Origin: Candidatus Methanophagaceae archaeon
GTDB taxonomy: Archaea; Halobacteriota; Syntropharchaeia; Alkanophagales; Methanospirareceae
Direction of reading: 5' to 3'
DNA length: 12,496 nt
NCBI GenBank assembly: GCA_013374505.1
Contig: QENJ01000067.1
Location: 1-12,496 of the forward strand
The translations under genes and the position numbers were made by a program. Shown in pieces: positions 1 to 11,402 of this stretch. Within the stretch, counting starts at the first letter, position 1, and each line of letters starts with the position of its first letter. The notes below the pieces were generated by a model. That model made no database searches, was not told where the DNA came from, and saw only the letters and a list, made by a program, of their open reading frames with translations.

Positions 1-1894
1 GTCTTCCTTCTTCGTCTATCTCAAAGGTAGCACCTGGAATGTTAATGTCACCCAGGCGAGCATGCCTTCCTTGCGGGTCGTAGACTGTGAGAGTGGCATT
101 AGAAGCGAGAATAATAGACATCCATAGATCTGCTGCTGGTGGTTGTCTGGTTTGTAAGGCAAGAAGAGCATAATCAGTAGCAAGTTCTGGTATATCCTCC
201 TGCCCATGAGCAGCAGGTGCATTTACCCAGTGCCCGTCATCGTGCTGAAGGCCTGCCAATTTGGTAGAAAGAGCGGCATACCAGTCAACACCACCTAAAT
301 CATTTAGGAAGCACATAGCCAAGGCTTTGGCGGTGGTCATATAGTAATAGTAAAGGAAGCAATGTCCTTGACTGTAAGGATAACCAGGATTATCGTCAAA
401 GCTGCAATCCTCATTGTTGGTTAACCAGGTCAAACCAGCTTGAACTCTTCCATCGGTTACATCAACGCCACAAAGTCTCAGGCTCCAGATGCCAGCCGCG
501 GTCATAGTGCCATAGGATTTGCTTCCTCCAGCCAAACTCCCGCCGGTTGGATAATATATAAAGCCACCATCATTATATGATGGTTGAGTATTATCGTGAG
601 CCCAAGCTTGGTCATTAGATGCTGGTCTATTTTGGCAGTGTGAGGTAAAGTTTATAGCCTTTGTCCAAGTATCATTCCCACTGGGCAATCCTGCTGCACT
701 TAATGCCATAAGTGCAAATTGAGTGTTAGAAAGGTCTCCGTCACTTGGCGAAGATCCGTAACGCCAGCCACCATAGCATGGATCAGTAGGGTCAGCCCCT
801 TCTCCTTCATCGTATTGTGCATCCACAAGCCAATCCCTTGCATCGGCTATTTCGTCGCTGTAGCTTGCATTATGAGTGGCAACTAAGGCTAATACAGCTA
901 AAGATGTTTCGTAAGTTCTCCTTGTCCCAAAAGAGCCATCTGTATTGTTATTAGCCAAGACGTATTGGATAGCTTTGTTGACGGTAGGGTTATCCTCAGT
1001 ATGTCCAGCATTAAGGAAGGCTAAGACTGCCATAGAGGTTATACCAACACTGTTCTGCCATGAGCCGTCTGGGTTTTGGTGGTTGCGGAGCCATTGGAGA
1101 CCTAGCACTATACGGTTTACGCTGGCAAGTGCGTCAATCTTGCCATAGCCCCAATCCTCATTAGGAGTATCACCGGTAAATCCATCGGATCTAGCTCCGA
1201 GTTGCAACATTTTTTTGATTTGCCCATGGGTTAAAGAAGGATATTTCTGGAGGATCAAAGCACTTACTCCAGCTACATGAGGACCAGCTGCACTTGTTCC
1301 ACCAAACCGTCGGTAACTACCCAAGGGATAGGATGATGCATTTGAAGCTGCGGACCCGATATCGTAATTTCCTGGTGCCGCTACATCAACAATAGTTTGT
1401 CCATCTATCCTCGGTCCTCTCCCACTGAAAGTGCTTAGATCGCCAACAGCTACTCCCCATCCTCTTGTACTATACGATGCCACAGTTATGGCGCTGTCGG
1501 AGGTAGCAGGTCGGGTAACAGTGGTCTCGTTAGACTGGAAGGCCGTCCACCTCGCACCTCCCGACCAAGAGGTTTGATCATCATATATATACAAATCAAC
1601 ATGTTCATTGCTGCCACCACTATTACTTACCTGTAATGTCCAGCCCCCAGGGATCACAGGATTCCTCGTAACCTGAATGTCGTACTTTGCAGTTCCTCTA
1701 GTCGAGTCCTCTCGACGATACCAGATTGTGTGTCCATCACCTGTGATTGTGGATTGCCAACCTGCCGGGGGTGCCGCGGGCAAATTCGCTACACTCCCGG
1801 TAGGGGTAGTCACCGTAATGGGTAAATTGTTGCCGGTAGTGCGCCATAATGTTGGGTATATACCCTCTGAATGTTCGTGGTTAACACGGGCACA
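1..1894 (-). CDS. 3' continuation of the S8 protease gene: beta-sandwich insert, catalytic-Ser block, prenyltransferase/terpene-cyclase-like alpha/alpha-toroid repeats and a terminal beta domain. It has no convincing start of its own and its 3' end runs off the window. Together with 1810-3258 it forms one frameshifted gene (possible pseudogene or assembly indel).
   Basis: This frame is not in the supplied track because it has no stop inside the window. The minus-strand frame with codon first bases = 1 mod 3 is open from the TAA at 1895-1897 down to base 1; I translated all of it and found no stops. It reads ..IYPTLWRTTGNNLPITVTTPTGSV..GWTLQVSNSGGSNEHVDLYIYDD..AITVASYSTRG..LSTFSGRGPRIDGQTIVDVAAPGNYDIGSA..FGGTSAAGPHVAGVSALILQKYPSLTHGQIKKML, which is the subtilase Ser block (Ser codon 1292-1294). 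From about 1100 to 140 it carries QNPDGSW, NTDGSFG, YGGWRYG, YNDGGFIYY and QHDDGHW repeats. It ends ..LTVYDPQGRHARLGDINIPGATFEIDEEGR at the window edge. Confidence 0.8.
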
Positions 1895-3258
1895 TTAAAG
1901 GCGAAGCTTGTGCTGCCACCAGCGGTTACATCATCCTGAGCATGTTTATCATTGCCAGCTAAGTTACCGGCTGGAACAACCTGTACAATGCCCCCAGCAG
2001 CTTCAGTATCAATCATCTGCTCCAAATTGGAAGAGCCGTCGAGGAATTGCTGTATCCATCCACCAAATTCATATATCATAACGTCTGCACCATTAGCCCT
2101 AGCCCAAGGAATATATACGGTGTAGTCATTGTCATATCTATCTGCTACGAGAAGTTCTGCATTTGGTGCAACACCTACATAGCTTCTCCTTTCAATAATT
2201 CCTCCGTTTACGATTCCGCACACACTTGTTCCATGTCCATTAGTATCATCGTCGGTCAATATAAGGTCAGTTCCTCTTGTACGTGTAGTACCGCCTGTGT
2301 TCAATGTCCTAAAAACTTTACTTGTGCCAAGTGCTATCACGTCCTCTCCGACGTCAAGGGCATTGTTACTATTCGAATCATCTACAATGAAAAGTAGTTC
2401 ACCATACGTGGGGTCCGTCTCTGTGAAACCGCTTGCTGTGCCATAATCCCGCTGGCCATTGCCATTAGCATCATTGTACAGCCAATCCATGTCCGCTTGA
2501 AACACGCCATCATTATTTCCCGCGGGTCCATCACCGTCAAAGAAATGAAGCGTTTCCCCTGCATTTGCAGCTCCGTTTCCGTTCAGATCTACGGCATCAG
2601 TTCCGGGATCAAATACATTATTACCGTCTGTATCGATCCAGTTGTAGGACCCTCCATCGGCTTGCCAAAAATCTGGATGGAAAACATCAATGCCTGTATC
2701 GAAATCCGCTATCGTTATCCCTTCTCCGGTTATATTGGTTCCCCCAGCATCAAGCAACTGCCATACGTCATCAGCATTAATCTCGGGAACGCTTACATCT
2801 AGAGGATTCTCTAATCCTAGCTGCCAAGTGGACTCAATACGCAAGACATCAGCCCTTTCCTTCAAGGCATCTACATAGGCGATAGGCATCTCTGCACCAT
2901 AGATTGTGCCTGAATGAGCCACTTCGTCATTCACACGCGCAAACATCAACCCCTGTGCCTCTAAAGCTGCAATTTCAGCCTCACTCAGTTCGTGATCGAA
3001 ATGAATACTCACGCTAAGGCTTTGTATTTGCGCGAGGCTACGTACGGCCTCGCCAAGGTCACTAGTCAAGCTAGGTTGGACTTCTGTCTCTGCTAGTGCA
3101 AGCAGAAGCTCTAGCGTGGCGCCGGTCTTGCTAAGATAAGAAGGCGTCTGTGCGTTAGCTGTTTCCATATTACCAGCACTGATGGCAACAGGCGAAAGCA
3201 ACATGGACAAAACCAGTATTGCCATCAGCGTATAAAATCCTATTCTCTTTGCCTTCAT
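1810..3258 (-). CDS. Secreted subtilisin-family (peptidase S8) protease, N-terminal part: signal peptide, pro-region, and catalytic Asp, His and oxyanion Asn. The frame ends before the Ser block.
   Basis: Tracked ORF of 482 aa. The signal peptide is MKAKRIGFYTLMAILVLSMLLSPVAISA. The Asp block is ITIADFDTGID, the His block is TNGHGTSVCGIV and the Asn block is VVPAGNLAGN. No GTSxA Ser block occurs before the TGA at 1810-1812; it lies in the adjacent frame (feature 1-1894). The ATG overlaps the upstream gene's stop (ATGA, 3255-3258). Confidence 0.85.
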   Translation of the reverse strand: MKAKRIGFYTLMAILVLSMLLSPVAISAGNMETANAQTPSYLSKTGATLELLLALAETEVQPSLTSDLGEAVRSLAQIQSLSVSIHFDHELSEAEIAALEAQGLMFARVNDEVAHSGTIYGAEMPIAYVDALKERADVLRIESTWQLGLENPLDVSVPEINADDVWQLLDAGGTNITGEGITIADFDTGIDVFHPDFWQADGGSYNWIDTDGNNVFDPGTDAVDLNGNGAANAGETLHFFDGDGPAGNNDGVFQADMDWLYNDANGNGQRDYGTASGFTETDPTYGELLFIVDDSNSNNALDVGEDVIALGTSKVFRTLNTGGTTRTRGTDLILTDDDTNGHGTSVCGIVNGGIIERRSYVGVAPNAELLVADRYDNDYTVYIPWARANGADVMIYEFGGWIQQFLDGSSNLEQMIDTEAAGGIVQVVPAGNLAGNDKHAQDDVTAGGSTSFAFNVPVLTTNIQRVYTQHYGALPATIYPLR

Positions 3259-4166: not shown

Positions 4167-4857
4167 CTTTATTGTAATCTTTCTTTATGCCTCCAAATAA
4201 AACTTTTCGTTTGTTCCTTTCGGATGATAACATTTGGGCTTTGAATTCATGTCATGGACGAGGCACTCATTTCAATTCCTCGCCTTTACTCGTCATTTTC
4301 ACACCTTCGCCCTTTTTATGTTTAAAGGTAACACGATAGAAAGCTCTTTGTTAAGAACACCTTAAAAGCTTTTCGATTTTTCCCGATATGTTACCCATTT
4401 CGATAACCTTAAATGGTCATATGTAAGTGGAGCTAAAGAAGAGGGACGCAAAAATTTACGAAATGAGCGAGTTCTCGAAGTAATCCCCTCCCTTTTGAAA
4501 AGGGCGGAAGCAAAACCTTCCTTTACATCAAACCTTGCATTTCCGTATCCGCTCCTCTAATCCGATGATGATCAAAATAGCCACAAACTTACGTGTTTCT
4601 CCAACCTCAATCCTCTCACGATCCTCAGAAAATCTGATCACAATATCTTCCGCTTCGCTCTCTCGTAAGCCAACATCTTATCCGATAGGTTTTTTAGAAA
4701 CCTTTATGACACCACAGGGACACCCAGGAACAGAACATGAAACTATAAAGTATTTTCATACCAATAATAAAAGCATAAAATTAGATAAAATCGTGAACAA
4801 GCATAAGGAGCAGTAATCAGCGAATAGCGAAAAATAGCAAACCTTAAAAAGACAGGG

Positions 4858-4895: not shown

Positions 4896-5291
4896 ATGAG
4901 CGAACTGCAAGATTTGTTGAAAGAGTCGGGATATTCGGATAAAGCCATTGAGTACTATCTGAACAAAGTGAATGTCGGAGAGCTAACCGAGCCAGATGCT
5001 CATGCGATATATACGGGACCCTGTGGCGATACGATGGAGATTTTTTTGAATGTAAAAGAGGGCGTGATAAAAGAAGCGAAGTTCCAGGCGATAGGCTGTG
5101 CAGGTGCTTTTTCGTCTGGCTCTGCCCTTACAGAAATGATCATCGGAATGACATTAGAAGAGGTGGAGAAGATAGATGAAGAGCTAATAATAAATTATCT
5201 GGGCGGTATTCCACGGCAGAAGGTACATTGCACGTGTTTATCTAAAAGGACGTTGCAAAAAGCGATTAATAATTATAAAGAAAAGGGGTGA
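4896..5291 (+). CDS. IscU / NifU-N-terminal-domain-type iron-sulfur cluster assembly scaffold protein
   Basis: Tracked ORF of 131 aa. The three scaffold cysteines are in the canonical contexts GPCGD, AIGCAGAFSS and KVHCTCLS. It is colinear with the IscU pattern YS.K..D.Y.N..NVG.... Confidence 0.85.
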   Translation: MSELQDLLKESGYSDKAIEYYLNKVNVGELTEPDAHAIYTGPCGDTMEIFLNVKEGVIKEAKFQAIGCAGAFSSGSALTEMIIGMTLEEVEKIDEELIINYLGGIPRQKVHCTCLSKRTLQKAINNYKEKG

Positions 5292-5308
5292 TAAAAAACT
5301 AAATTGTT

Positions 5309-5397
5309 GACACAGATTAACGCAGATTAACACAGATGATAAAAAGCAACAGAGTTAAACATAAATAAATACGTGTAAATCAATGTTAATCTGTGTC
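5309..5397. promoter_or_regulatory. Putative operator/promoter: a 13-bp inverted repeat plus a 10-bp-periodic tandem repeat bracketing a TATA-like box
   Basis: GACACAGATTAAC (5309-5321) is the exact reverse complement of GTTAATCTGTGTC (5385-5397). The left arm is followed by in-phase 10-bp copies: ACAGATTAAC 5312-5321, GCAGATTAAC 5322-5331 and a degenerate ACAGATGATA 5332-5341. ATAAATAAAT at 5361-5370 is TATA-like, which puts the expected TSS inside the right arm, about 40 nt upstream of the ATG at 5435. Confidence 0.5.
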
Positions 5398-5434
5398 TTA
5401 AAGAGAAGGCAGTTATACTTTAGGTACAATAAAA

Positions 5435-6106
5435 ATGGAAGAAAAAGAGAAGAAGAAAGACCTGTTGGATAAAGGCGCAATTGTCCAGCGGGATTATGAA
5501 ACGTATGCGATTGCGCCGCATATACCGGGCGGGATTTGCGAACCCGGTACGCTACGGAATATAGCAGATGTCGCGGAGAAATACAATGCTGCAGCGTTAA
5601 AATTGACCTCAGCACAACGAATAGCAATTGTGGGTATAGCAGAGAGCGATATAGAAGCTGCCTGGCACGACCTCGATATGCCACCGGGTGCAGCTATCGG
5701 GTTATGTATCAGAAGCGTAAAAATCTGTCCGGGAACAACGTTCTGTAAAAGGGGCAAGCAAGATTCTGTGAAATTGGGTCTGGAATTTGATAGCAAGTAT
5801 CACGGGTTGGAACTGCCTTCAAAGTTCAAAATCGGCGTTTCCGGTTGTAGTAATAGCTGTGCGGAGTCCTGGATAAAGGACCTGGGCTTCATCGGTATGC
5901 CAAAGGGCTGGAAAGTGGTGGTCGGAGGTTCCGCAGGTGCTGCACCAGCGATTGCAGAAGTTTTGGCAGAGAATTTGAGTGATGATGAGGCTATGGCTCT
6001 TGCTGATCGAATCATCAATTACTACAAGAACTGCGACACAAAAAAGCGATTGGGCAGGTATATTAAAGAAGTCGGGCTGGATGAATTCAGAAAAGAGGTT
6101 TTATAA
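5435..6106 (+). CDS. Small (~24 kDa) nitrite/sulfite reductase-family hemoprotein with a siroheme-[4Fe-4S] binding motif (low-molecular-weight assimilatory-type sulfite-reductase-like)
   Basis: Tracked ORF of 223 aa. The N-terminal ferredoxin-like half domain reads IVQRDYETYAIAPHIPGGICEPGTLRNIADVAEKYNAAALKLTSAQRIAIVGI. The four-Cys signature is C-x5-C (CPGTTFC) .. C-x3-C (GCSNSC) with KIGVSGC context, as in the SiR/NiR siroheme domain. Confidence 0.85.
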   Translation: MEEKEKKKDLLDKGAIVQRDYETYAIAPHIPGGICEPGTLRNIADVAEKYNAAALKLTSAQRIAIVGIAESDIEAAWHDLDMPPGAAIGLCIRSVKICPGTTFCKRGKQDSVKLGLEFDSKYHGLELPSKFKIGVSGCSNSCAESWIKDLGFIGMPKGWKVVVGGSAGAAPAIAEVLAENLSDDEAMALADRIINYYKNCDTKKRLGRYIKEVGLDEFRKEVL

Positions 6107-6133
6107 TAGCCTATAACCAGGAGAAGGAAACGT

Positions 6134-7078
6134 ATGAGTGAGGTAGCATCAAAAAAGGGAATGGTGGAGATGTCGGGGTGTAGTGTAAAGGAGGGCGATT
6201 TACCCACCGCCAATGTAGAAGGCAAAGAAGTACCATGGGATCCTGCACAGCTAAGGAAGATTAGTGAACACCCTTGTTTCAGTGAAAACGCCTGTCATTT
6301 CTTCGGCAGAATACATCTCCCGGTGGCACCGAAATGCAACATCCAATGTAATTATTGTGTACGGAAATTCGATTGCGTGAATGAGTCGCGACCCGGAGTG
6401 ACGAGCAAGGTGCTAATGCCACAGGAGGCGTTAGAACTGGTACGTGATGTAATGGAAAAGGTGCATTACATAAAGGTAGTTGCCGTTGCGGGACCCGGCG
6501 AGCCACTGTTTAACGAAGAGACGTTCGAGACGTTCCGGCTCGTGAAGGATGAGTTCCCACACCTGATGCGGTGTCTGAGCACGAACGGGCTTCTTTTGCC
6601 CGAACGGATTGACGAGATAGAAGAGTTGGACATCGGAACTGTGACAGTCACACTGAACGCTATAGACCCTGCGATAGGTAAGGACATCTATTCGGTTGTC
6701 AATTACCGCGGTAAACGATATAAAGGCGAAGAAGGTGCTGAGATACTGTTGAAGAACCAGTTGGAAGGCATTCGAGAGGCTGTGAAACGTAAGATACTGA
6801 TAAAAGTGAATACTGTTCTTATTCCCACGGTAAATGATGAGCATATCGTGGAGGTAGCGAAGGAGATACGTAAGCTGGGCGTTTATATGCACAATATTAT
6901 CCCGCTCATCCCGCAGTACAAGTTCGCGAATATTAAACCACCGACACAGCAAGAGAAGGAGGCGATTCAGGAGAAATGCCGCGAGTACGTGAAAGAGATG
7001 ACTCACTGCCGGCATTGCCGTGCCGATGCTATTGGCAAGCTGGGAAAGGACATCCAACAGCGTATGTACTCAGAATAA
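6134..7078 (+). CDS. nifB: NifB, the radical SAM nitrogenase cofactor (NifB-co) biosynthesis protein, in the minimal stand-alone form without a C-terminal NifX-like domain
   Basis: Tracked ORF of 314 aa. It carries the NifB hallmark HPCFSENACHFFGRIHLPVAPKCNIQCNYCVRKFDCVNESRPGVTS (CxxxCxxC radical SAM cluster), then GPGEPL and LSTNGLLLP, and C-terminally HCRHCRADAIGKLG. An AGGAGAAGG Shine-Dalgarno-like site lies at 6119-6127. The gap from the upstream gene is 27 nt. Confidence 0.9.
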   Translation: MSEVASKKGMVEMSGCSVKEGDLPTANVEGKEVPWDPAQLRKISEHPCFSENACHFFGRIHLPVAPKCNIQCNYCVRKFDCVNESRPGVTSKVLMPQEALELVRDVMEKVHYIKVVAVAGPGEPLFNEETFETFRLVKDEFPHLMRCLSTNGLLLPERIDEIEELDIGTVTVTLNAIDPAIGKDIYSVVNYRGKRYKGEEGAEILLKNQLEGIREAVKRKILIKVNTVLIPTVNDEHIVEVAKEIRKLGVYMHNIIPLIPQYKFANIKPPTQQEKEAIQEKCREYVKEMTHCRHCRADAIGKLGKDIQQRMYSE

Positions 7079-7128
7079 ACAGGAAAGCACACACACCAAA
7101 AATCCGCGTCTAAGACCGCTGAAAAGAA

Positions 7129-7881
7129 ATGGACCTGGTAGTATTGTACAGCGGCGAGTTCGGTGAACGAGTAATTGGAAACTTCATAAACTACTCAACC
7201 TTCTGCATATCCTGTGCAGATGCCTGCACGCACTGTAAAGAAGCTAAATACGGATTTGCAGACCGTATAAACGGATTGTTTAAGCTTCCTGAGCCTTCTA
7301 TGCTTCCGGAATTCATAGAAGATTCTGCGGGTGAGTATTTACCGCAGGAGATTCCAGATGCAGACATAGCGATTGTATCTGAGATTCACAATGACCTCCT
7401 GCTGGAACTCCCACCCATTTTAAAGGATTCGGGGATTAAAGCGATGATAGTACCACAAGAGAGTGCTGCTAGGATTGCAAGACCGCAGGTTGAAGAGATA
7501 TGCGGTAGAGAAGGAATTGAGGTAGTCTTTCCAAAGCCGTTTTGTGATTTACAGCCGCAGGACGACAAGCCCGTGATTCGCAGTTTTATCGCAGAATTCG
7601 GGATTGGAATACCAGAGATACGGGTAGAAATGGATAGGCGTGGGCGTATTGTTCATGTAGATGTTTTGAGAAGTGCTCCTTGCGGGAGTACCTGGTTCGT
7701 GGCAAAGCAGTTAGAAGGCGTAGAAGTTGAGAACAAACTAGAACTTTACGATCGAATCAGTGAATCTCATCATTCCTATCCCTGTACCGCGAGCATGGAG
7801 AAAGATCGTGAGATTGGCGATACGATTCTGCATAGGGCGGGTTATTTGATTAGGGAAGCGGTAGAAAAGGCGTTAATATGA
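7129..7881 (+). CDS. Cys-rich protein resembling the archaeal DUF166 / COG1810 family (PF02593), function unknown
   Basis: Tracked ORF of 250 aa. It has an N-terminal CISCADACTHC cluster (C-x2-C-x3-C-x2-C) plus conserved-looking PFCD, APCGSTWF and HHSYPCTASM..GDTILHRAGY blocks. The family assignment is from memory of the DUF166 pattern and needs an HMM check. That the ORF is coding is much more certain than its name. Confidence 0.6.
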   Translation: MDLVVLYSGEFGERVIGNFINYSTFCISCADACTHCKEAKYGFADRINGLFKLPEPSMLPEFIEDSAGEYLPQEIPDADIAIVSEIHNDLLLELPPILKDSGIKAMIVPQESAARIARPQVEEICGREGIEVVFPKPFCDLQPQDDKPVIRSFIAEFGIGIPEIRVEMDRRGRIVHVDVLRSAPCGSTWFVAKQLEGVEVENKLELYDRISESHHSYPCTASMEKDREIGDTILHRAGYLIREAVEKALI

Positions 7882-7933
7882 TTTTACTAATTGTTTAGCT
7901 AACCACAAGATTACACAGAGTTCCACGAGAAAC

Positions 7934-7952
7934 CTTTCTTTAAGAAAGAAAG
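7934..7952. terminator. Hairpin in the convergent intergenic region (8-bp stem, 3-nt loop)
   Basis: CTTTCTTT-AAG-AAAGAAAG forms a perfect stem with T-rich flanks (..TTTACC, GGTTTTTG downstream). Confidence 0.35.
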
Positions 7953-7982
7953 CTTTACCAAAGAAACTATTTGGTTTTTGAT

Positions 7983-8005
7983 AAAACTTTTTTCTAAAAA
8001 GTTTT
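7983..8005. terminator. Candidate bidirectional terminator hairpin (10-bp stem, 3-nt loop) with T-runs on both strands
   Basis: AAAACTTTTT-TCT-AAAAAGTTTT forms a perfect 10-bp stem. Each strand reads a T5 run at the 3' side of its stem. It sits about 28 nt downstream of the minus-strand stop and about 100 nt downstream of the plus-strand stop. Confidence 0.5.
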
Positions 8006-8032
8006 AGTGTTAATCTCGTGGAATCTCGTGGT

Positions 8033-8800
8033 TTATTGTTCTGGCAGAATTTCAATAAATTTCGCTTTCCGTGGCGTTTTCCTGATCTCATTTATCTCGG
8101 AATACAAAGGGTGATAGGATACAACATATAGATGCCTCATCGCACCGGAAACCGCATCTATCAAATCTCGTTTCTCTGGTTCTTTAAACTCCACGCCCTC
8201 TAATGGTATCCAGGGCTCAATGAAAAGTGCAATCGCGGGATCTATCCGTGAAATGAAGATTGCCAGACGTTCTATATCCGCAGGATCATTTATCCCAGGG
8301 ATCAAAACCGTCTCAATCTGTAATCTGAAATAAGCATCTTCTAGCGTTACTAAGTTCTTTATCGCAGTCAATACTGGCTTGACACTCCTTTTCGTGTAGT
8401 AAAGATGCTTTTTGGCATCAAATGCCTTTATGCCGATAATAATCTCGTTCACACCCGTTTTTTTCAAGTCTTTCGCATATTCCATGTCTATTCTGCCCCC
8501 ATTTGTCATCAATACGATATGTGCGCCGAGCTTTGTGATTCTTTCGATTATCATTATCAAATCCGGGTCGAGTGTAGGTTCATAGCCACCAAGATATATC
8601 CTATGCGGCTTCAACTCTTCCAATTCTGTTAGTATGTTATCTAAATTCCAATCAATGTATTTCCGCTCTTCCGCATAGATGTCACATTCGTTTCTTTTCC
8701 TGAGACAACCTATACACTCGAAGTTGCATCCTTTAAAAGACAGCATGGCCATCCTCTCACCCACGAATTTTTGTGTGTAGCTCATGTGGTAAATATTCAT
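8033..8800 (-). CDS. Radical SAM enzyme of unknown substrate (about 255 aa, with no SPASM or other auxiliary Cys cluster seen)
   Basis: It has a canonical CNFECIGC (CxxxCxxC) motif after LSFKG, then a GGYEPTL glycine-rich SAM motif and MTNGG. The tracked ORF begins at 8908, but I place the start at ATG 8798-8800 (MNIYHMSY..). That start is preceded by GGAAGGAGA 7 nt upstream and avoids overlapping the 3' end of the upstream gene. Confidence 0.85.
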   Translation of the reverse strand: MNIYHMSYTQKFVGERMAMLSFKGCNFECIGCLRKRNECDIYAEERKYIDWNLDNILTELEELKPHRIYLGGYEPTLDPDLIMIIERITKLGAHIVLMTNGGRIDMEYAKDLKKTGVNEIIIGIKAFDAKKHLYYTKRSVKPVLTAIKNLVTLEDAYFRLQIETVLIPGINDPADIERLAIFISRIDPAIALFIEPWIPLEGVEFKEPEKRDLIDAVSGAMRHLYVVSYHPLYSEINEIRKTPRKAKFIEILPEQ

Positions 8801-8852
8801 GACTGTGTCTCCTTCCAGTACTAATGTTGTAGATACAGTGATTTTTAAACGT

Positions 8853-9872
8853 TCACACCCTTTTTGTTTTTCTTCTTGAGAAGTACAGTACCGTAAGTAA
8901 GCCAGCAACTGCTAATACCGCTTCAAACCCGGCAGGCTCTGGTGTGGGCGTCCCCGTATCACCGACCGATTCTGACAGACACGCATAAACAATCTCCGTT
9001 GCGTTTGCTATCCGGGGTCCTGCTCGAGACGCGATGTCCGCATCAATAGTGTAAACTCTACCGTTTTTAACGGCATTCACTACTTTCAGCCGCTCCTCTT
9101 GTAGTATATAATCATACGGCTGCATGCCCGCGACGCCATGCCCAATCGAGACAATAATGACATCAGGATTGCGGTCTATGAACTCTTCCAGACTCGCAGT
9201 ATCCCACTCTTTTTTGTCAGAAAAGACATTATCGCCACCTGCTAATTCTATCAACTCGTCCTGTACGGTGCCGCCACCCGCAACCCAGAGCGGGTCATGC
9301 CAGGTAATATGAGCAACTTTCGGGCGTTTCACGTCCACAGTTCGAGCTTTTATCGCTTCTAATCTTTGTGCCATATCGGTGACTAAAGCAGTAGCATTCT
9401 CTTCTTTGCCAGTTAAACGTCCTACCAGCATTATATCGTCCTGTATCTCCTGGATGTTCACCGGATTCAGGGATACGACCGCTACATTCAGCTCTGTCAA
9501 TCGCTCAACTGTTTCTTTGCTGTTCAACGCGCAGCCGAGCACGAGGTCGGGCTCTGAGGCTACTACTTTCTCTATGCTCACCGTGGAAACGCCACCTACC
9601 CGCGTAATTTCTTCCGCTTCTGCCGGGTAATTACAGTAATCTGTTGCACCTATGACTCTGTCACCGGCGCCAATAGCGAATAGTATTTCCGTATTGGTTG
9701 GCGATAACGAGATGATTCTTTCCGAAACTCCCGGGAGGGTTACATTCCTACCGAAGTCGTCAGTTACTTTGAGCATTTCTGCGCTTACCGCAAAAGCAGA
9801 AAAAGCGAGTGCTGCGATAAAAGCGAGTGTTAGCACTGTGAGTGTGCATATATCCCTTCTATTAGTATTCAT
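8853..9872 (-). CDS. BtuF/FhuD-type (Peripla_BP_2) substrate-binding protein for a corrinoid, siderophore or metal chelate, with an N-terminal signal and a C-terminal PGF-CTERM-like archaeosortase sorting signal
   Basis: Tracked ORF of 339 aa. Family blocks are ERIISLSPTNTEILFAIGAGDRVIGATDYCNYPAEA..VGG..SIEKVVASEPDLVLG, then HDPLWVAGGGTVQDELIELAGGDNVF and NPDVIIV. The signal/TM segment is CTLTVLTLAFIAALAFSAFAVSA. The tail is TGTPTPEPAGFEAVLAVAGLLTVLYFSRRKTKRV. Confidence 0.85.
   Translation of the reverse strand: MNTNRRDICTLTVLTLAFIAALAFSAFAVSAEMLKVTDDFGRNVTLPGVSERIISLSPTNTEILFAIGAGDRVIGATDYCNYPAEAEEITRVGGVSTVSIEKVVASEPDLVLGCALNSKETVERLTELNVAVVSLNPVNIQEIQDDIMLVGRLTGKEENATALVTDMAQRLEAIKARTVDVKRPKVAHITWHDPLWVAGGGTVQDELIELAGGDNVFSDKKEWDTASLEEFIDRNPDVIIVSIGHGVAGMQPYDYILQEERLKVVNAVKNGRVYTIDADIASRAGPRIANATEIVYACLSESVGDTGTPTPEPAGFEAVLAVAGLLTVLYFSRRKTKRV
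8856..8938 (-). other. PGF-CTERM-like tripartite sorting signal (Thr/Pro linker, AGF motif, TM helix, basic tail)
   Basis: DTGTPTPEP-AGFEAV-LAVAGLLTVLYF-SRRKTKRV closely resembles methanogen PGF-CTERM tails (..PGFEA.FA.AGLLAVAYL.RRR), except that it has P-A-G-F instead of P-G-F. Confidence 0.5.
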
Positions 9873-9972
9873 CTTTCTTCTTGACCGCTTGATGGTATAA
9901 ATAACAGTTCTTTATTCCGTCCTTGTCATTAAAATATCTTCGTTTATTTCTCTGCTCGAAATAGAGAGTTAG

Positions 9973-10161
9973 TTATGCCGCCATATATAGCGAATTACCG
10001 TCAATAAACCACGGACCTAACTCTTTTTTTATCGCCTCCAACCGTTCCTCTAATTGTTCTTCCCTCTCTTCAAGCTCGAATTCAGACATATTCTGAAGTA
10101 GCCGTAGCAAATCCTTCATCAGTCTTGTTTTCTCTTCTTCGTTCATTTTTATCACGCACAT
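9973..10161 (-). CDS. Hypothetical small acidic coiled-coil protein (62 aa, or 57 aa from the second Met)
   Basis: Tracked ORF reading MCVIKMNEEEKTRLMKDLLRLLQNMSEFELEEREEQLEERLEAIKKEL... It shows heptad-like charge periodicity. A TTTTATAT TATA-like box on the minus strand lies about 25 nt upstream of the ATG, consistent with a leaderless transcript. I recognised no family. Confidence 0.35.
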   Translation of the reverse strand: MCVIKMNEEEKTRLMKDLLRLLQNMSEFELEEREEQLEERLEAIKKELGPWFIDGNSLYMAA

Positions 10162-10302
10162 AGTCTAATTGCAGGTCTGCGATATAAAAGAAGTTGGAGT
10201 TGGCACTATAAATAGGTTCCCCTTTAGGTAGTAACTATAACCTAGATGGGTAAACATATGTTTCATTTGAATTGGTGTCGCTGCTCACACATTACACCCA
10301 CC

Positions 10303-10665
10303 TTATCTTACACCCACCTCATCTTCTGCCGGTACATACACCATTCCTCCACCTTTTGTTTTATATATCCTACCCATTTCACCTGTTATCTCAGTCTGTA
10401 CCGTCTCGTTCATCATATCCAGCTTCTCTATCCGTTCTCCGCTTTTTACTATTACTTCCATGTTCGGCTGCCCCGGATTCTTGACTATTGTCATATCTGT
10501 CTGCGTTAGCACTTCGGGTATGCTGAGATACATCAGCAGCATCACCATTAACCCGAGTGCGAATACCATCGCCACGTCAAATAGATTGGCAACGGAGGAC
10601 ATCGGGTCTTCGTCACATCTTCCACGTTTGCGACTTCCGCCTCCTACGTCTTTCATGTATTTCAT
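10303..10665 (-). CDS. ExbD/TolR-like single-pass membrane protein (DUF2149-like)
   Basis: Tracked ORF of 120 aa. A basic N-terminus is followed by DEDPMSSVANLFDVAMVFALGLMVMLLMYL: one TM helix with an embedded Asp (D30, codon 10576-10578), positioned like the essential TM Asp of ExbD/TolR. A small extracytoplasmic domain follows. It starts 14 nt after the ExbB-like stop. Confidence 0.7.
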   Translation of the reverse strand: MKYMKDVGGGSRKRGRCDEDPMSSVANLFDVAMVFALGLMVMLLMYLSIPEVLTQTDMTIVKNPGQPNMEVIVKSGERIEKLDMMNETVQTEITGEMGRIYKTKGGGMVYVPAEDEVGVR

Positions 10666-10679
10666 TTTCTTCTTTTTGT

Positions 10680-11402
10680 TTACTCCCCTCCAAACAGCAT
10701 CTCACAAATATACCGCATGTCGTTCATATCCTTATCGTACCAGTGCTGCCGAACCGTAGTAATCACGAATGCAACACCACCAACCAAGAGACCGAGGACT
10801 GTGGTACCGAAAGCGAAGATTAGGCTGGTTGCCAGCGTATTTATATCGCCCTGTGTGAGTGCAAGTAGTGCAGGACCCATCGGTATCAGCGTACCCATAA
10901 GCCCGAGTATCGGCCCTATTCTAACCGCGGTTCTCGTCTTTTCCAGCCGTTTTGTCATCTCCTCATCGCACGTCTGCAACAGCTTTTGCAACCTTACCGC
11001 AAATAGCTCGTCATTTTTTAGCGTTGAGAGTTCATTCAGAAACATGTGCACGAATTTGTGTGCTGTGCAATTTTTGAGCACGGCAATTGCCTCTTTGTGC
11101 TCTTTTATTGTTTTACCCTTGCGTGCGTTGGGGTTCTCTATATCTTGTACCACCAGGTTCACTGCTTCTTGTAGTCCTTCTTCCAAATCTTTCGGATGGC
11201 TCTTTGAGACTCGCCCGGTTCTCGTAAGCCACTCGAAAGTGAGCATCCCGACCTCTACGATTATCCATAGCGTTAAGCCATACAAAAGTATTAAAACCGG
11301 AATTCTGAGCACAGAAGTAATCAAAGTCAGGAAATCAGAGCTCATCCAGGACACGAAATCAGTGCTCGGCATCAATGTCGGTAGCATCACTACAGGATTC
11401 AT
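10680..11402 (-). CDS. MotA/TolQ/ExbB-family proton-channel protein
   Basis: Tracked ORF of 240 aa. It has a 3-TM ExbB topology with a long cytoplasmic loop. The C-terminal signature is IGPILGLMGTLIPMGPALLAL..LATSLIFAFGTTVLGLLVGGVAFVITTV. Its ATG overlaps the stop of the upstream surface-protein gene (ATGA, 11399-11402). Confidence 0.85.
   Translation of the reverse strand: MNPVVMLPTLMPSTDFVSWMSSDFLTLITSVLRIPVLILLYGLTLWIIVEVGMLTFEWLTRTGRVSKSHPKDLEEGLQEAVNLVVQDIENPNARKGKTIKEHKEAIAVLKNCTAHKFVHMFLNELSTLKNDELFAVRLQKLLQTCDEEMTKRLEKTRTAVRIGPILGLMGTLIPMGPALLALTQGDINTLATSLIFAFGTTVLGLLVGGVAFVITTVRQHWYDKDMNDMRYICEMLFGGE

Follow-up and report, generated by a model that had tools for sequence, protein, structure and literature searches.

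Why should an archaeal nifB gene stand in one row with genes for an Fe-S scaffold, a small siroheme reductase and a DUF166 protein, with no nitrogenase gene beside it? The arrangement occurs on a stretch of 12,496 nt, hereafter the window, which is the whole of contig QENJ01000067.1 from CONS3730H04p2b1, a metagenome-assembled genome (MAG) of the anaerobic methanotrophic archaea of group ANME-1 (Candidatus Methanophagaceae archaeon, assembly GCA_013374505.1). Four open reading frames (ORFs) on the plus strand are at issue, and their families were called with Pfam and NCBIfam profiles, applying the curated cutoffs of NCBIfam:

4896-5291, plus strand: IscU/NifU-N-type Fe-S scaffold, 131 aa (PF01592, 103.5 bits)
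5435-6106, plus strand: small siroheme reductase (SiR) of the alSir / Group I Dsr-LP type, 223 aa (NIR_SIR_ferr plus NIR_SIR)
6134-7078, plus strand: NifB, 314 aa, a stand-alone radical S-adenosylmethionine (SAM) protein without a NifX domain
7129-7881, plus strand: DUF166 protein, 250 aa (PF02593, 229 bits, profile positions 1-219 of 221)

The gaps between them are 143 nt (IscU-SiR), 27 nt (SiR-NifB) and 50 nt (NifB-DUF166). An earlier reading made from the letters alone (the sequence-only reading) had named the same four genes and the same gaps, and the profiles agree with it. The account that we favour, with a probability only slightly above one half (about 0.52), is that the row is a co-regulated module for repair and biogenesis which forms the end of an oxidative-stress and iron island.

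Judged by its sequence, the window NifB is a bona fide NifB. It scores 375.5 bits against TIGR01290, for which the curated equivalog cutoff is 343.65, matches NifB of Methanothrix thermoacetophila (6Y1X) with 459 bits and 66% identity over 289 residues and that of Methanothermobacter (7JMB/7BI7) with 272 bits, and is 100% identical to the database entry 'nitrogen fixation protein NifB [Ca. Methanophagaceae archaeon]'. In an alignment that included 6Y1X and 7JMB, the CxxxCxxC motif (C68/C72/C75), C48, H61, C147, C292 and C295 were invariant and C81 nearly so; we take these conserved Cys and His residues to be the ligands of the K-cluster modules, with the K1/K2 assignment of the published structures. 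The score above the cutoff and the conserved columns separate the protein from the NifB-like proteins without a nitrogenase role, a grouping that had been raised as a possibility, and it is predicted to be an [8Fe-9S-C] L-cluster synthase. The ribosome-binding site noted before its start is present as a GGAGAAGG motif 7-14 nt upstream of the ATG.

For the gene context, the NifB alignment was scanned against one genome per GTDB species, and the best 80 loci were taken and compared by tblastn with the window proteins and by clustering of the neighbouring ORFs. Loci with a NifB at least 69% identical to that of the window (49 of the 80) were counted as ANME-1/Methanophagales-type; the rest came from Methanotrichaceae, Methanolinea, Methanoregula, Hadarchaeota, a Syntrophoarchaeum and others. 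Enough sequence upstream of NifB for a locus to be judgeable was available at 45 ANME-1-type and 30 other loci. SiR lies directly upstream of NifB and on the same strand at 18 of these 45 loci and at none of the 30, so that the association, which the sequence-only reading had proposed to look for in archaea at large, is recurrent in ANME-1-type genomes and confined to them. The linkage is far from unique to the window: it spans 18 species-level genomes with conserved order and orientation, and the loci that bear SiR are scattered over the ANME-1 part of a NifB tree (neighbour-joining only). Members of the linked pairs are 79-92% (SiR) and 73-96% (NifB) identical to the window proteins, and since order and orientation are kept over such distances in 18 species-level genomes, the adjacency is far beyond chance; given shared ancestry, the linkage counts as one or few events. 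Between the SiR stop and the NifB start there are 26 to 30 nt, or else the two genes overlap by 4 nt or by about 29 nt, and from this spacing a joint transcript of SiR and NifB is almost certain. The co-transcription suggested by the sequence-only reading has thus gained support; its idea of a sulfur supply to NifB is weakened by the lineage restriction and by the loci where the two genes are unlinked, and the linkage does not show SiR feeding sulfur to NifB.

The SiR-NifB pairing persists while the neighbours downstream of it vary. IscU adjoins SiR or NifB, directly upstream, in 11 related loci, and an IscU-NifB pair without SiR occurs in five. The components, and a role of NifB independent of nitrogenase, were already known, and it is the ANME-1 linkage that appears to be unreported: in the searchable literature we found no report of an FDP-IscU-alSir-NifB(-DUF166) arrangement in ANME-1 (FDP, flavodiiron protein) and no earlier paper connecting NifB to Dsr-LP/alSir or, in methanogens, to flavodiiron proteins, and the preprint of Saini et al. 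has nothing on sulfite or on the gene neighbourhood of NifB.

Several observations on individual loci (numbered with L) belong here. One MAG, WYZ-LMO13, carries two distinct FDP-SiR-NifB loci (L029 and L050), which may be paralogues or a mixture of strains, and L047 has a second, distant SiR-family gene (9043-9819, 22% identity) downstream of DUF166. A small sirohydrochlorin chelatase of the CbiX type adjoins NifB in L016 (7353-7820), L017, L032 and L033, two of which have no SiR; it could supply siroheme or be the F430 Ni-chelatase, and either would be a further cofactor link. Two Methanotrichaceae MAGs have two NifB loci each (L068/L088 and L070/L084; 62-64% identical to the window NifB), which suggests paralogues. 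Finally, L025, L046 and L051, with NifB at 75-79% identity and ANME-1-like neighbours, are filed as Bathyarchaeia, Desulfobacteria and Nitrosotalea MAGs, probably through mis-binning.

As had been stated, neither the ORF list nor a profile search of the window proteins contains nifH, nifD, nifK, nifE or nifN; since the window is an entire MAG contig, these missing genes tell little about the content of the genome. The separation of nifB from nitrogenase genes, which had been singled out as a feature of the locus, is real here but is no anomaly, as NifB apart from nifHDK is normal in archaea. It is to be expected, because NifB is essential in methanogens that have no nitrogenase. There it is thought to be the source of the [8Fe-9S-C] clusters of the activation complex of methyl-coenzyme M reductase (MCR), whose structure, published in 2025, has [8Fe-9S-C]-binding sites on McrC and Mmp7. 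Like other archaeal NifB proteins (6Y1X; 7JMB/7BI7; that of M. acetivorans), the window NifB has one radical SAM domain of about 300 aa and is unlinked to nifHDK, and it shares with 6Y1X and 7JMB the CxxxCxxC motif and the conserved Cys/His columns. It differs from them in its setting, behind IscU and a small siroheme reductase, whereas nifB follows the mmp genes in M. marburgensis (2025 paper on the MCR activation complex) and lies among housekeeping genes in Methanotrichaceae and Methanolinea.

The commonest neighbour of NifB is not SiR but a flavodiiron protein (FDP), identified in the neighbour clusters by the Pfam domains ODP, Lactamase_B and Flavodoxin_1, which stands upstream of NifB, in the same orientation, at 30 loci, those of the ethane oxidisers Argoarchaeum/GoM-Arc1 among them. 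Between FDP and NifB there is a modular slot, which may be empty or hold IscU, SiR or both; at some loci DUF166 comes after NifB, and at others it stands upstream, beside ferritin. In L001 and L096 the whole setting can be seen, with a Fur-family regulator, rubrerythrin, desulfoferrodoxin, peroxiredoxin, ferritin, flavodoxins, rubredoxin, FDP, IscU, SiR and NifB all in the same orientation. Fur-headed stress islands of rubrerythrin, desulfoferrodoxin, rubredoxin, FDP and peroxiredoxin are known from strict anaerobes, and the relatives of the window have the same co-oriented set upstream of the module; the ANME-1 version is extended by IscU, the siroheme reductase, NifB and DUF166, and we found no description of this extension in the literature.

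SiR keeps this company where NifB is not its neighbour. The SiR of L095, 81% identical, has desulfoferrodoxin on one side and peroxiredoxin on the other, within an island of this kind from which NifB is absent. In Syntropharchaeales, SiR stands after FDP and ahead of genes for multihaem cytochromes and rubrerythrin, and a DUF166 of 59% identity lies at a distance of about 3 kb. In Methanothrix the order DUF166-SiR is found beside an unrelated radical SAM gene. In neither lineage is SiR beside NifB, and in Methanoliparum SiR stands alone, again not beside NifB. Further SiR genes have Fur, Rrf2/rubrerythrin (L094) or glutamine synthetase as neighbours. The primary association of SiR is therefore with genes of oxidant defence and iron and with DUF166, and its linkage to NifB is an ANME-1 speciality; partners such as FDP, rubrerythrin, desulfoferrodoxin, peroxiredoxin, ferritin, Fur and DUF166 indicate a role in oxidant or sulfite stress. 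The radical SAM gene convergent to the Methanothrix DUF166-SiR pair was considered as a counterpart and set aside, being neither NifB nor the second radical SAM protein of the window. Directly upstream of SiR, within the stress island, L095 (4648-4998) and L002 (195-503) have a small ORF that weakly resembles DsrE/DsrF sulfur-relay proteins (E = 0.001, below the cutoff).

The window itself does not contain the co-oriented Fur-headed island, of which only the end of FDP is left:

4783-4816, plus strand: 3' remnant of the FDP gene, the last ~11 codons and the stop (blastn breakpoints; alignment of ...DKIVNKHKEQ and the stop with the FDP C-terminus of relatives)
4829-4853, plus strand: A/T-rich element GAAAAATAGCAAACCTTAAAAAGAC between FDP and IscU, ~45 nt upstream of the IscU ATG

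Homology to the relatives starts at 4783, and the 616 nt before it (4167-4782) match nothing there; this stretch holds no convincing gene. The breakpoint marks a rearrangement by which FDP and the island upstream of it were lost from the window contig. The block at 4829-4853 is near-invariant over seven aligned loci and, from its composition and place, may be an internal archaeal promoter of the BRE/TATA type.

The reductase itself is a single NIR_SIR_ferr plus NIR_SIR unit without a ferredoxin insert (NIR_SIR_ferr, 53.8 bits, residues 17-81; NIR_SIR 4Fe-4S, 108.3 bits, residues 91-222 of 223). Its best family match is the C-terminal domain of NirB (TIGR02374, 177 bits, profile positions 552-759), and CysI and Fsr score 43-66 bits. 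The siroheme-[4Fe-4S] motif, C98-X5-C104...C138-X3-C142, is invariant in 120 of 120 homologues. The Fsr structure paper names Arg355, Arg423, Lys460 and Lys462 as sulfite-binding residues, and in a sequence alignment with Fsr (7NP8) SiR keeps three of these four positions (R93, K130 and K132). At the position of Fsr Arg355 the alignment of 120 homologues, which is one of sequences only, has an invariant Ala27, with His29 two residues on, in a NirB-like motif A-I-A-P-H-I-P-G-G. According to Susanti, subgroups Ia-d of Group I Dsr-LP tolerate missing positions. The substrate of SiR is predicted to be sulfite or nitrite. SiR resembles the known alSir / Group I Dsr-LP proteins (D. vulgaris DVU_1597, Methanosarcina P590, ANME alSir) in its length of ~220 aa, the same two domains, the Cys motif and the presence in ANME; it differs in having Ala at the first sulfite-binding position and in being nearest to NirB, a comparison made through Fsr and the family profiles. 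The alSir protein is expressed in ANME, and sulfite, which arises abiotically from O2 and sulfide, damages MCR.

The IscU-like protein has the ligand residues of its family, Cys43/Asp45, Cys68 and Cys111 (in GPC43GD45, GC68AG and HC111TC113), and scores below the cutoffs of the named equivalogs (TIGR03419 NifU_clost, 113.7 against 187.9 bits; IscU, 87.1 against 192.4; NifU, 97 against 273.3). On these scores it is a member of the NifU_N family with no named equivalog. NifU delivers [4Fe-4S] units to NifB, and the suggestion that the IscU-like protein does so here is consistent with this biology and with the five IscU-NifB loci that have no SiR; it is a proposal. The 11 loci with a NifU-N/IscU-type scaffold beside NifB or SiR recall the bacterial NifU/NifS-NifB supply line, from which the ANME-1 cluster differs in that it lacks NifS/IscS, the C-terminal domains of NifU, NifX/NifEN and any nitrogenase gene.

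DUF166 has an N-terminal motif C26-x2-C29-x3-C33-x2-C36, in which C29, C33 and C36 are invariant and C26 nearly so in the alignment, and further invariant residues at C139, C185, C219, H87, H214, H215 and H235. It is probably a metal- or cluster-binding accessory factor. Its AlphaFold2 model has a pLDDT of 90.4, with the Cys loop as the low-confidence part, and a structure search found no solved structural relative; against the DfsP (seleno)protein equivalog NF041372 it scores 55 bits, where the cutoff is 200. The DUF166 protein of M. maripaludis (MMP_RS05055) is required for autotrophy that depends on carbon monoxide dehydrogenase/acetyl-CoA synthase (CODH/ACS) and shows cofitness with CODH/ACS and CooC2, so that genetics tie a member of the same Pfam family to a complex Ni-Fe-S enzyme. 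That gene lies next to cooC2 and the CODH/ACS operon, whereas DUF166 of the window follows NifB (and that of Methanothrix is beside SiR), and the likeness is one of family level. DUF166 is degraded in L001 (9706-10059) and L013 (7008-7365), where segments equivalent to 7149-7265 and 7386-7646 of the window are deleted; fragments of 32 and 60 aa are left in L001.

How might these four proteins serve one purpose? In a repair and biogenesis module, IscU would supply [4Fe-4S] building blocks to NifB, and the L-clusters made by NifB would go to the L-cluster-binding proteins of MCR activation and, in genomes that encode it, also to a seep-group nitrogenase. The small reductase would remove sulfite, and possibly nitrite, the sulfite being formed where oxidants meet sulfide and being harmful to MCR, and DUF166 would act as a Cys-rich accessory factor for complex metallocentres. 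After exposure to oxidants the cell would be able to detoxify, to re-supply Fe-S units, to rebuild O2-labile clusters and to re-activate MCR; the genes would be linked by this joint need and not by a transfer of sulfur from SiR to NifB. Such a module would suggest that L-cluster synthesis is wired into the response of methane-metabolising archaea to oxidant damage, and the FDP-IscU-SiR-NifB operon, which is conserved in ANME-1 and shows translational coupling, is a testable candidate for the role of the widespread, expressed alSir of methanogens and ANME. If the linkage means co-regulation only, its value is smaller, and still it defines a module to detoxify and rebuild.

Several points weigh against this account. 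Regulation of the operon by stress is assumed from the position of the Fur-family gene only, and in the window, where the island is gone, the module must use a promoter of its own. SiR is without the first of the four sulfite-binding residues and nearest to NirB, and its substrate may therefore be something other than sulfite. In the linked pairs SiR is better conserved than NifB and frequently overlaps it, which would also fit a closer functional coupling of the two, and the decay of DUF166 in two close relatives means that it is not an obligatory part.

A closer coupling is what the sequence-only reading had in mind: SiR would be devoted to NifB and would deliver, form (from sulfide, in the reverse reaction) or buffer the sulfite that serves as the ninth, belt sulfur of the [8Fe-9S-C] cluster, while IscU gives [4Fe-4S] and DUF166 acts as a carrier. 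Its statement that sulfite can supply this sulfur in vitro is correct according to the literature, by which the L-cluster is completed in vitro with sulfite and not with sulfide, and a reverse, sulfite-forming role of alSir was once proposed, for the synthesis of coenzyme M. The place of SiR directly before NifB, with an overlap or a gap of 26-30 nt in 18 species-level genomes and kept despite changing downstream neighbours, speaks for such a partnership, as does the high conservation of SiR in the linked pairs; we found no paper that connects SiR with NifB. Yet the adjacency is absent in 30 of 30 judgeable loci outside the ANME-1 type and in 27 of 45 within it, IscU-NifB and FDP-NifB pairs do without SiR, and SiR orthologues elsewhere stand beside oxidative-stress genes, cytochromes or DUF166 and not beside NifB. 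A sulfite reductase running forward would compete with NifB for sulfite, and the pocket of SiR is short of one canonical sulfite ligand. An Fsr/Dsr-type homologue is missing from about 69% of class I methanogen genomes, yet NifB is reported to be universal in methanogen genomes; SiR cannot be a general requirement for NifB. We regard the partnership as improbable, and a shade more so the form of it limited to ANME-1, in which SiR would set the sulfite at NifB, by oxidizing sulfide or by holding or channelling sulfite, for the insertion of the ninth sulfur in a sulfide-rich cell. Were that form true, the operon would be the first genetically encoded source in vivo of the ninth sulfur of NifB.

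The linkage could also be an accident of history, in line with the mundane alternative of the sequence-only reading, rearrangements in an ANME-1 ancestor having joined NifB, IscU, SiR and DUF166, which then stayed together by inertia with only generic Fe and S housekeeping in common. NifB neighbourhoods that differ wholly between lineages (housekeeping genes in Methanotrichaceae and Methanolinea, mmp genes in M. marburgensis), the variably filled slot between FDP and NifB, the DUF166 pseudogenes of two relatives and the proneness of the region to rearrangement and repeat insertion would all agree with this. Inertia accounts poorly for an order and orientation that hold down to 73% NifB identity, with overlapping stop and start codons, and for recurring partners that are not random but all related to Fe, Fe-S, O2 or sulfur oxyanions, and we think it unlikely, if with some real chance of being right. 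Far less probable is a cluster dedicated to nitrogenase, in which the operon would mature the 'methane seep group' enzyme, which has no NifEN, and be merely unlinked from nifHI1I2DK. It is true that many ANME-1 genomes, and many of those with the SiR-NifB arrangement, have nifHI1I2DK of this group without nifEN (Chadwick et al.), and the table of that paper lists NifK for the window's own MAG and full clusters for GoMg1, GoMg2, CONS3730B06UFb1 and Agg-C03. It lists nothing for GB37 (G37ANME1), which was described with group IV nifH only and no nifDK, and whose contig PQXB01000001 carries FDP-SiR-NifB. The operon arrangement thus occurs both with and without nifHI1I2DK, a mixed answer to the earlier question whether SiR-nifB genomes have nifHDK, and GB37 led us to reject the nitrogenase-dedicated cluster; non-diazotrophic methanogens need NifB as well, and no nif gene was found within 6 kb of NifB in the 80 loci, as judged from the annotated recurrent neighbour clusters. 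NifB in metagenomes is, as a caution, no marker of diazotrophy.

Two repeat insertions lie next to genes of the module:

5299-5430, no strand: insertion of ~132 nt between IscU and SiR, resembling a miniature inverted-repeat transposable element (MITE), absent from six close relatives
7886-8038, no strand: second dispersed repeat, between the DUF166 stop and the convergent radical SAM gene, absent from L013 and L014

The 143-bp spacer between IscU and SiR had been described as regulated. Most of it is the first insertion, which is missing in L001, L013, L015, L017, L018 and L019, and in the relatives only 3-8 nt, an operon-like distance, separate the IscU stop from the SiR ATG; we therefore discarded the spacer as a conserved regulatory region, since what fills it is a dispersed repeat inserted at this place in the window only. 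An imperfect inverted repeat of 25 nt (5309-5333 / 5373-5397) lies within the insertion, which is bordered by ATAAAA on either side. Its hairpin has a folding energy of -26.6 kcal/mol (z = -3.4 against shuffled sequence), and partial copies of the insertion are found in L020 (five), L053 and L017. Copies of the second repeat are 94% identical in L001 (6046-6185), L002 and L004 and 80% identical at L001 10064-10201, and it contains a tandem AATCTCGTGG (twice) and an inverted TTCCACGAGA. A scan of the whole window gave no Rfam match, and a scan for sigma-70 promoters and intrinsic terminators, whose model does not apply to archaea, turned up promoter-like sites in smaller number than in shuffled sequence.

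The rest of the window holds, besides the two features below, an S-layer-like protein and a CARDB/PQQ surface protein:

2-3258, minus strand: frameshifted S8 subtilase (Peptidase_S8 profile)
8033-11402, minus strand: block of radical SAM, BtuF-like PGF-CTERM binding protein, DUF2149 and MotA/ExbB-like genes, kept in L001, L013 and L014

The frame of the subtilase is broken near 1810-1894, with profile positions 1-171 in the ORF 1810-3258 and 157-288 in the open frame 2-1894; the latter also holds an alpha/alpha toroid like that of prenyltransferases and squalene-hopene cyclases and is truncated by the contig end. The radical SAM protein of the minus-strand block, the second of the window, is convergent to DUF166, has 291 aa and falls in no specific family. 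As a whole this archaeal block resembles an ExbB/ExbD-type powered system that takes up a corrinoid or metal chelate.

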